A DNA stretch of 64,000 nucleotides from a virus (taxonomy: Duplodnaviria > Caudoviricetes), in the IMG/VR virus record IMGVR_UViG_2974730439_000001, positions 1 to 64,000 of that record; one strand, 5' to 3'. Below are positions 38,587 to 60,749 of this stretch, piece by piece. How positions within the stretch are numbered: position 1 is the first letter of the stretch; every line of letters begins with the position of its first letter. The notes beneath the pieces were generated by a model. The model was not told the origin of the DNA and searched no databases. It was given only the letters and a program-made list of their open reading frames with translations. The translations under genes were made by a program, and so were the position numbers.

Positions 38587-38957
38587 AAACAAACAGAGGA
38601 GTAGAAAACTGTGAACTACTCCGTCTTTAAGGTGAGAATCCTTAACAATCCTGTGGGGCTTATATCTATCAAAAGAACTTACAGCAGCTTTTATATTAGC
38701 TTAGCTGGACTTTATGATAGTATTAGTGCAGACGTTAAAATCAGGAACAACTATATTAGATGGCAATATTACCTTCTTCCAGTCGCAAATGTCATATAGT
38801 TTAATATAGCCAAGTTTGTTTCGTCCTTAGATTTACAGTATCTACCATTTGTTTATTTAATCATTGTTCGTTCTTAATTATACAGATTGATTAATTAAGA
38901 ATAACAGTAAGCGTACTGTTGTCAGTATATTTATATGTGAATATAGATATACTGATT

Positions 38958-40727: not shown

Positions 40728-41129
40728 AACCAAACCTTCTTTCTGTTTTAAATGAACATTAGAGTCTAGTATACTCAGTCTGTGAAGATAGAGTATACGT
40801 CCTCAGAAAATGACAAGCATGTGGGGCATAGTAAATACTATAATGGCAGATTGAATTAGTAAGGCATACGTATGCATATGTAGAACAAACCATTTGATTA
40901 AATGTATTTATGATTGTGCGAGACGTTAAAATCATGTACTCCAATAAGATTTAGTTTGACAGCTATTTCTGCTTATGAGTTAAAACTATAGTGAGAGTCA
41001 TAGCGTAAGTAACGATTGTAGTCGTTTATCTTTGTCTTATAACAAATGCTATAAACTAAGAGTTGGCACTAACTTAATTAAATCCTGAGTGTCCAGGCGT
41101 CATTATTAATCAATTTAAACGTTTAAATT

Positions 41130-42337: not shown

Positions 42338-42555
42338 CCCTAAACAAGTTAGTATGGTGCAGTCAACCCAAAACTACTATTATCAACCAGATCCCTAATG
42401 GAAGCTTAGTAACAACTAAGCTACTAAGCAAGAGTACAATGGACTATACAACGGTCAACCAGTATCTAATATTGGTCTAAGATGAAGGAAAAGGGTTGCC
42501 TATGAATAAGAGATACGAATAAGTAGGATAGTAGTTTTTTAAAGAAATTAAAGAA

Positions 42556-42810
42556 ATTGACTGTTAGGTCTATTGAATCATCGTAAGACTTCCGTTCGAG
42601 TCGGAAATGCTCCACTAAATTAAAACAAGGAAGTTATTAGGTTTCTTAGCCGTTAGGTTGCAAGTCCTATAAAAAAGAAACCCTTATCAATGGGGCATAC
42701 AGGTTTTGATTGCGATAGTGAAGGTAGAATAGGTCAATAAGCAGATAACTGGCAATACAAGTTATATTATGAACTATAGCCGTATTGCGGCGTAAGTTCA
42801 AACGGCTAAG
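42556..42810 (+). ncRNA. ssrA: Circularly permuted (two-piece) tmRNA: acceptor piece about 42556-42614, intervening segment, coding piece from 42692; tag GNTSYIMNYSRIAA
   Basis: T arm TTCCG-TTCGAGT-CGGAA then ATGCTCC-A precedes GGGGCAT (G3.U70); helix-2 pairings between pieces; ATAACT-GGC resume context; ORF ends GCG GCG TAA. Confidence 0.88.
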
Positions 42811-42828
42811 CTAATGTCGTAGAAAGCT

Positions 42829-42891
42829 GGAGCATATCAGGCTAGATCAGACGTAAGGGCTGTGAAGGGTTCGATTCCCTTCAATGCTACA
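42829..42891 (+). ncRNA. tRNA/tmRNA-like remnant with T arm, downstream of the tmRNA coding piece
   Basis: GGAGCAT...GAAGGG-TTCGATT-CCCTTC-AATGCTACA; no anticodon arm. Confidence 0.45.
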
Positions 42892-60689: not shown

Positions 60690-60749
60690 GGAATGTTCTT
60701 TAGAAAAGGAAAGATACTAATGTAGTGGGTTCGATTCCCACACATTCCA
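60690..60749 (+). ncRNA. 60-nt tRNA mimic lacking a real anticodon arm
   Basis: Perfect acceptor GGAATGT/ACATTCC-A, T arm GTGGG-TTCGATT-CCCAC, D arm CTTT/AAAG, stub TAC-TAAT-GTA. Confidence 0.7.

Follow-up and report, generated by a model that had tools for sequence, protein, structure and literature searches.

The window analyzed here, a stretch of 64,000 nucleotides (positions 1 to 64,000 of IMG/VR virus record IMGVR_UViG_2974730439_000001), very probably harbors a functional circularly permuted tmRNA gene, located inside a plus-strand early or middle transcription unit of a Suoliviridae-type crAss-like phage. tmRNAs free stalled ribosomes. In the gene described here, the segment for the 3' acceptor and the T arm precedes the 5' acceptor strand and the tag frame. 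The same arrangement, together with compensatory changes, was found in 97 of 102 related loci, and the match is therefore not due to chance. The virus record containing the window, 99,848 bp in length, has direct terminal repeats and a completeness rating of 100%.

We applied ARAGORN to the whole window and again to a 900-nt excerpt. It called one 'tmRNA* (permuted)', with a 3' tRNA domain at 42579-42615, a 5' tRNA domain at 42692-42717, the resume consensus GATAACTGGCAATACAAG, and the tag GNTSYIMNYSRIAA* at 42751-42795; its outer coordinates (42525-42886) are padding and not mapped ends. Both the permuted gene and the tag peptide of the original prediction, which had been made from the letters of the sequence alone, were thus called independently. 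The outcome with Rfam was mixed. At gathering thresholds, no tmRNA match was obtained in the window. In a permissive search with 451 nt, the model RF04321 (tmRNA_permuted) aligned to 42557-42795 with 37.4 bits (E 4e-6), which is below its gathering score of 47, while relatives from the same alignment reached 50.3-62.7 bits. The betaproteobacterial tmRNA model scored only 19.6 bits against a gathering score of 84 and matched the tRNA-like domain alone. The alphaproteobacterial and cyanobacterial models were not listed at E values up to 10 in this permissive search, from whose output two lower-scoring overlapping matches of the same clan were omitted. An isolated T-loop-like match to a tmRNA model (15.5 bits) lies at 60725-60741 of the window; ARAGORN calls no tRNA there, and the match may represent another tRNA-like element.

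The T arm (TTCCG-TTCGAGT-CGGAA), the strand ATGCTCC, the discriminator A, and the GGGGCAT motif are all present where they had been placed, as are the 77-nt intervening segment and its hairpin, the latter being recovered by RNAfold (Table 1). The position of the gene end has to be corrected: it had been set at 42810, but the coding piece extends to about 42830, its likely 3' end, where a tRNA-like element begins. When the two pieces were folded with RNAcofold, an energy of -57.6 kcal/mol was obtained for both together versus -39.4 kcal/mol apart, and all proposed helices were recovered. The P5-like hairpin at the tag consists of UGAACU/AGUUCA closing GCCGU/GCGGC. Among the relatives, conservation starts exactly at ATTGAC, and five unrelated contexts are found upstream of the acceptor piece.

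Table 1. Features of the permuted tmRNA locus (positions in the window)
Feature	Position	Strand	Description
RAGATH-9 motif	42359-42538	+	Rfam RF03146, 158.5 bits (gathering score 75.2); directly upstream of the acceptor piece, 17-nt spacer
Acceptor piece	42556-42614	+	P2c 3' strand 42556-42562, P2b 42569-42574, P2a 42580-42586, then GAC
Acceptor piece, 3' part	42590-42614	+	T arm 42590-42606; acceptor 3' strand ATGCTCC 42607-42613; A73 42614
Intervening segment (77 nt)	42615-42691	+	Hairpin GGUUUCUU/AAGAAACC with inner T-arm-like hairpin; RNAfold -12.5 kcal/mol
Coding piece, start	42692-42750	+	Acceptor 5' strand GGGGCAT 42692-42698; D-loop analogue ACAGGUUUUGA
Coding piece, 5' helix strands		+	P2a 42710-42716, P2b 42723-42728, P2c 42732-42738; then 12-nt linker to the resume codon
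Tag frame GGC...GCG GCG TAA	42751-42795	+	Encodes GNTSYIMNYSRIAA*; 3' half and stop in P5-like hairpin
Post-tag hairpin ACGGC-UAAGCUAAU-GUCGU, then AGAAAGCUGG	42802-42830	+	Candidate H-type pseudoknot: loop GCU, downstream AGC
Degenerate tRNA-like element (59 nt)	42831-42889	+	Acceptor AGCAU../..AUGCU, 5/7 pairs; A73 at 42889
Second T arm AAGGG-UUCGAUU-CCCUU	42865-42881	+	Inside the degenerate tRNA-like element

The two-piece reading was examined by covariation in two sets of relatives. One set consisted of eight loci from GenBank phage records (of nine retrieved, that of cr109_1 was truncated by the end of its record), while the other was obtained from more than 116 IMG/VR contigs, which were scanned with an exact 19-mer located downstream of the tag frame; the invariance of this 19-mer in the alignment is thus partly by construction. 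In 97 of the 102 loci with a recognizable 5' end, all seven positions of the upstream strand pair with the downstream GGGG strand. Six strand pairs account for these acceptor stems: GGGGCAT/ATGCTCC (56 loci), GGGGCTA/TAGCTCC (15), GGGGCTG/CAGCTCC (12), GGGGTAT/ATACTCC (8), GGGGATG/CATCTCC (5), and GGGGGTA/TACCTCC (1). Positions 5-7 of the acceptor are therefore fully compensated across them, whereas the invariance of A73 is partly by construction, since the matching script demanded CTCC followed by A. We then used an alignment (A1) of 60 distinct genes with intervening segments of at most 200 nt. Here, the G3.U70 pair is invariant (60/60), as is the C following A73 (60/60), which is the only base of the CCA end that is encoded in the window (42615). 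For the acceptor stem, the T stem, and the three inter-piece helices taken together, 90.9% of the cells are paired, compared to 34-50% if the partners are slid by one to three columns. Changes on both sides were observed for 18 pairs (181 cells), and none of 500 shuffles reached the observed covariation score.

Broken down by helix, 100% of the cells are paired in the T stem, 96% in P2a, 91% in P2b, 99.8% in P2c, and 95.7% in the inter-piece acceptor stem, where the unpaired cells come from four rows that are apparently offset by one column in A1. All five pairs of the T stem covary, and nine pairs of P2a-c are changed on both sides. The original prediction of a two-piece tmRNA, whose 7-bp acceptor (GGGGCAU with AUGCUCC, then A) carries the alanine determinant G3.U70 and whose pieces are further held together by three helices, is thus supported in relatives; it had named the lack of covarying acceptor and helix-2 pairs as one of the results that would speak against it, and both were found to covary. 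A 4-bp hairpin over the resume codon was considered separately and rejected: it holds in two clades (GCCA/UGGC and GUCA/UGAC), but only 45.8% of its cells are paired overall, and it fits the window poorly.

The tag frame shows the signs of a coding sequence. It is open in all 102 loci and comprises 13 or 14 codons (14 in the window). In the window, it starts with the glycine resume codon GGC, which is shared with the one-piece tmRNAs of Bacteroidota, of which 101 were compared. We counted 21 peptide variants with the consensus G/D-N/K-T-S-Y/F-V-T/M-D-Y-T-R-I/L-A/V-A, and one and the same peptide can be encoded by several nucleotide versions that differ by synonymous changes. Insertions and deletions in the frame are multiples of three. 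The tag always ends in A, and in most variants in AA; an ...(I/L)(A/V)A end is conserved. In the 102 loci, the stop codon is TAA or TGA, but never TAG. Of 48 distinct sequences, 44 form the hairpin of tag and stop with a stem of 5-7 bp, for which 20 strand combinations were counted, and a change from ATT...TAA to ATC...TGA keeps one pair of this hairpin.

Other parts of the gene vary considerably among the relatives. The intervening segment ranges from 15 to 603 nt. Its hairpin is the same in L001, L002, and L075, with one compensated pair (GGTTTCCT/AGGAAACC). The segment acts as a landing pad: some phages carry a complete tRNA-His(GTG) in it (L002:2084-2156, which is cr114_1, and L114), other relatives contain an insert of about 600 nt, annotated in the cr113_1 record as an opposite-strand endonuclease gene, and in still others the segment is reduced to 15-17 nt (further loci listed for its variability are L006, L009, L012, L028, L039, and L078). 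The T stem of the window copy is unusual, with UUCCG/CGGAA in place of the GAGGG/CCCUC of RefSeq relatives. In L024, L026, L071, L080, L081, L084, and L110, the T loop UUCGANU is replaced by GGGGC-UAUCGUAU-GCCCC or CGCGG-GGCAGUG-CCGCG; the covariation of the stem is kept in these clades, and their elbows are unusual for a tRNA-like domain. Group I introns are known to split the T loop in bacterial tmRNA genes as well. In L007:301-1113 (cr4_1), L008, L011, L032, and L048, the permuted tmRNA gene is also interrupted by an intron, which lies within the acceptor-piece T loop, either after base 2 (GGGTT|...|CGACT) or after base 7, and the insert in cr4_1 matches an Rfam group I intron model with 74.9 bits. 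A form that is both permuted and intron-containing is not listed in the 2025 tmRNA database paper (PMC11915505).

Of the usual four pseudoknots of tmRNA, PK1 precedes the tag and PK2-4 follow it. As had been noted, there is little room for them here. Only 12 nt separate P2c from the resume codon, and therefore no PK1 is present. The stop codon is followed by about 35 nt, which contain one hairpin (ACGGC/GUCGU) and possibly a second stem of 3-4 bp. PK1-3 are thus missing and at most one weak pseudoknot is left. PK1 matters in E. coli tmRNA, but accepted tmRNAs elsewhere have reduced sets of pseudoknots, so that this reduction is compatible with membership in the tmRNA family. The post-tag 19-mer is the most conserved part of the gene. 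In three scans, no single-base changes of its loop GCU were found in IMG/VR; the sole compensated variant of this loop is GCC/GGC in cr4_1. By inspection only, the post-tag block resembles the Bacteroidota motif ..CUAAGCAUGUAGAAAGC preceding the 3' strand of helix 2, and TGTAGAAAGC occurs in 80 of 101 host tmRNAs. An nhmmer search with the pseudoknot block against the host loci gave nothing significant.

The gene is located in an RNA-rich block that also contains Hatchet ribozymes at 38623-38746 and 40799-40937 and the RAGATH-9 motif. RAGATH-9 lies beside the tmRNA in some relatives (L001, L084) and at a distance of 1.4 kb in L016, while RAGATH-20 and RAGATH-7-assoc are also found near the tmRNA in relatives. 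We found no mention of RAGATH-9 in the papers searched. We regard this motif as context only, with at most a putative part in processing. Within the RNA block, no promoter-like or terminator-like site was detected on the plus strand between the flanking plus-strand open reading frames, which fits an excision of the tmRNA out of a longer transcript.

The tRNA-like element behind the coding piece begins exactly 10 nt past GUCGU in most of the relatives. Its counterparts there are mostly 73-80 nt long, end with a discriminator A, show 27 acceptor types, and are fully paired in 45 of 76 cases; some are called as tRNA by ARAGORN or Rfam, such as tRNA-Ile(GAU). The element in the window is a shortened and poor form of them. 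In L020, L037, and L060 the elements have the size of a cloverleaf and are called 'tRNA-?' by ARAGORN, with a two-base anticodon or an odd anticodon loop; these may do more than mark a cleavage site. In all likelihood, the downstream element provides an RNase P site at which the 3' end of the coding piece is generated. This element could also be taken as the 3' end of an ordinary one-piece tmRNA, in which GGGGCAT (42692) would pair with ..ATGCTAC (42885-42891) and the upstream piece would be a leftover fragment. Such a reading would account for the presence of a second canonical T arm, and the strand behind this arm does match GGGGCAT at six of seven positions in the window. But the downstream strand pairs at 7/7 with the GGGG strand in none of 77 distinct relatives, compared to 97 of 102 for the upstream strand; it covaries instead with its own adjacent 5' strand and lacks G3.U70, and helices P2a-c require the upstream piece. 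The covariation has already refuted the second T arm as a tmRNA 3' end, and the chance of a one-piece gene is practically negligible.

Two other readings accept the two pieces and dispute their function. The RNA could act as a decoy or inhibitor, its tRNA-like domain titrating host SmpB or AlaRS in the manner of the DS6A RNA, with the tag frame left untranslated. The lack of smpB in the phage and the loss of PK1-3 would suit this role, and a molecule consisting of the tRNA-like domain only is reported to inhibit tmRNA (PMC4131195). An untranslated frame, however, is hard to reconcile with 13-14 codons that stay open in 102 of 102 loci, tolerate indels only in threes, and vary synonymously, with a conserved ...(I/L)(A/V)A end and with stops that avoid TAG. 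In addition, the sequence just ahead of the resume codon is host-like, and a change of this codon is compensated in a hairpin. We therefore give the decoy only a small chance. The gene could also be a decaying relic, either a fragment of a host ssrA attachment site beside a captured piece or a hitch-hiking pseudogene, given that integration often takes place at tmRNA genes and that fragments of ssrA may be found in phages (PMC9004378); that the window copy stays under the Rfam cut-off would fit decay. Against this stand the conservation of the gene in more than 100 contigs from several Suoliviridae subfamilies, with compensatory changes in every helix, and the fact that the two pieces are complementary and not duplicates. 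Moreover, judged by this genome, with its direct terminal repeats and its completeness rating of 100%, there was no sign of integrated elements. A relic is accordingly very improbable.

We therefore favor a functional permuted tmRNA. From its anatomy, covariation, coding constraint, and similarity to host tmRNAs, we infer how it would be processed, charged, and used for tagging. Cleavage of the precursor would release two RNAs, the acceptor piece (42556-42614, about 59 nt) and the coding piece (42692 to about 42830, about 139 nt). Two paired RNAs are expected because the CCA end and G1 both have to be free, and because the intervening segment varies from 15 to 603 nt among relatives, some of which carry a tRNA-His or an endonuclease gene in it. 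As the 5' ends of all tmRNAs are made by RNase P, this enzyme would here generate the one at G42692; a second RNase P cut, before the degenerate tRNA at 42831, would yield the 3' end of the coding piece. The trailer past A42614 would be trimmed and the CCA completed by a host enzyme. Via the 7-bp acceptor stem and three helix-2 segments, the two RNAs would then pair to form an alanine-accepting tRNA-like domain with G3.U70 and A73. No smpB was found in the phage genome, so host SmpB would be needed; together with host AlaRS and EF-Tu, it would bring the paired RNA to stalled ribosomes, where translation would resume at GGC and add (A)GNTSYIMNYSRIAA, a likely degradation tag.

The most likely benefit for the phage would be an extra capacity for ribosome rescue during infection. 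Its genome also points to a changed genetic code. If TAG is read through, frames of at least 150 codons contain 10,251 instead of 5,886 residues for the minus-strand late genes, whereas little changes for the plus-strand genes, the tmRNA among them (5,632 to 6,057 residues). The late-gene frames on the minus strand of the window (2504-30274) contain 2-17 in-frame TAG codons each, which indicates reassignment of TAG; ARAGORN found no suppressor tRNA in the window. It is conceivable that the tmRNA is tied to this code switch. In the most far-reaching version, the gene would have a separate, phage-borne two-piece origin from a Bacteroidota gene and would in addition be part of a phage recoding program: it would rescue ribosomes stalled on late genes with in-frame TAG that are read against host RF1, as well as those stalled when host defenses cut tRNA or mRNA, and would mark the products with a phage-specific tag whose stop is never TAG. 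We consider this combination rather unlikely.

The gene family as such is not new to the databases. Three Suoliviridae genomes, cr125_1 (NC_055900), cr114_1 (NC_055897), and cr52_1 (NC_055888), carry the RefSeq label 'transfer-messenger RNA, SsrA'. The closest public matches to the region are cr125_1 and cr114_1 with 78-79% DNA identity, besides an unannotated human fecal contig with 87%. The three labeled genes belong to the same family as the window copy, share its synteny, are all called permuted by ARAGORN, and encode related tags (GNFYVTDYTRIAA, GNTSYVTDYTRLVA), whereas the window copy differs by its replaced T stem, its own tag variant, and its shortened downstream tRNA-like element. In Table S1 of Buchholz et al. 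(2022), 13 crAss-like phages, among them a cr115_1 of 99,848 bp, are entered as 'Permuted' on the basis of ARAGORN, but these entries are not discussed in the text (PMC9004378). The 2025 tmRNA database paper searched the RefSeq viruses and reports 79 phage sequences, while naming three permuted clades (PMC11915505). The novelty of a permuted tmRNA gene in such a phage was thus overstated in the original prediction. On the structure or origin of the crAss-like permuted tmRNA we found no paper, only the automatic annotations and one supplementary table, so the family is one that databases have already labeled, without a describing paper having been found.

Permuted tmRNA genes are a textbook case of RNA gene rearrangement, which has been recognized in three bacterial lineages and in organelles. 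If a further origin, derived from Bacteroidota and residing in a very common group of human gut phages, is true, this rearrangement recurs readily. Likewise, an RNA of about 200 nt that has a tag frame but lacks PK1 and contains no more than one pseudoknot would offer structural and mechanistic studies a naturally minimal tmRNA. The gene would also raise the question why lytic TAG-recoding phages invest in ribosome rescue. For annotation it serves as a warning, since standard tmRNA models miss or under-score the permuted tmRNA genes of crAss-like phages.

For a comparison with host genes, we used a pattern for the Bacteroidota tag G-E-T/N-N-Y-A-L-A-A, which yielded 120 loci, nearly all of them from Bacteroidota. 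In 101 of these, ARAGORN called a one-piece tmRNA of the standard type, about 397 nt long, and in none a permuted one, in agreement with the view that Bacteroidota tmRNAs are one-piece with a glycine resume codon. In nhmmer searches, the profile of the phage acceptor piece hit host positions 350-398 in 102 of 104 cases (E about 1e-8 to 1e-9), and the profile of the phage 5' block hit positions 1-26 in 89 of 92 matches. Members of the phage family are up to 90% identical to Bacteroidota tmRNA over the last 41 nt and up to 92% over the first 24 nt; the window copy is more diverged, with 59% and 79%, respectively. The one-piece genes (Segatella, Bacteroides, Parabacteroides; tags GENNYALAA and GETNYALAA) have in common with the phage gene GGUUUUGACAGCG behind the acceptor strand, CGUUUGGAC ahead of the T arm and ..CUCCAC, the GGC resume codon after UAACU, and GUAGAAAGC ahead of the 3' strand of helix 2, just before the break of the phage gene. 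In contrast, the host genes are collinear, about 397 nt long, and have four pseudoknots and a 9-codon tag. Judged by these sequences, the phage gene seems to have arisen from the one-piece tmRNA of its Bacteroidota hosts. Among 151 Bacteroidales genomes, one permuted match exceeded the cut-off, and it represents a different kind of gene: L250:1410-1896, on contig 48 of a Bacteroidales assembly, matches RF04321 with 51.1 bits, encodes the tag GNKIESKIAA*, and has a terminator of its own besides an intervening segment of about 200 nt, without the motifs of the crAss-like family. Together with the latter, it makes at least two kinds of permuted tmRNA in Bacteroidales-associated DNA.

The two-piece tmRNAs of Alphaproteobacteria (Caulobacter), a betaproteobacterial lineage, and cyanobacteria (RF01849, RF01850, RF01851, merged as RF04321) show the same order of acceptor piece, intervening segment, and coding piece as the phage gene, with the break between the last pseudoknot and the helix 2 3' strand, and their pieces are also held together by the acceptor stem and helix 2. 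The phage gene differs by its resume codon, which is Gly and not Ala, by the absence of PK1-3, by a total of only about 200 nt, and by its end sequences, which resemble Bacteroidota tmRNA. According to the model scores, lineage-specific features of the three groups were not encountered outside the tRNA-like domain. The independent permutation proposed by the original prediction is therefore supported by the host-like ends of the tRNA-like domain, the shared GGC, the lack of an alphaproteobacterial or cyanobacterial match, and the 19.6 bits to the betaproteobacterial model; as it is based on model scores and shared host characters, a separate origin can be regarded as well supported, though not as demonstrated. 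The two-piece tmRNA genes of the OM43 phage Melnitz and of pelagimyophages are likewise phage-borne permuted ssrA genes for which no phage smpB was reported, but they are of the alphaproteobacterial type and carry a glutamine riboswitch (PMC9004378), whereas the crAss-like gene would derive from another bacterial phylum and thus from another permutation event. Extreme reduction with loss of pseudoknots is shared with the permuted tmRNA of jakobid mitochondria (RF02544) and with the RNA of mycobacteriophage DS6A, which consists of the tRNA-like domain only. Both of these RNAs are devoid of a tag frame, while the phage gene keeps a conserved frame of 14 codons.
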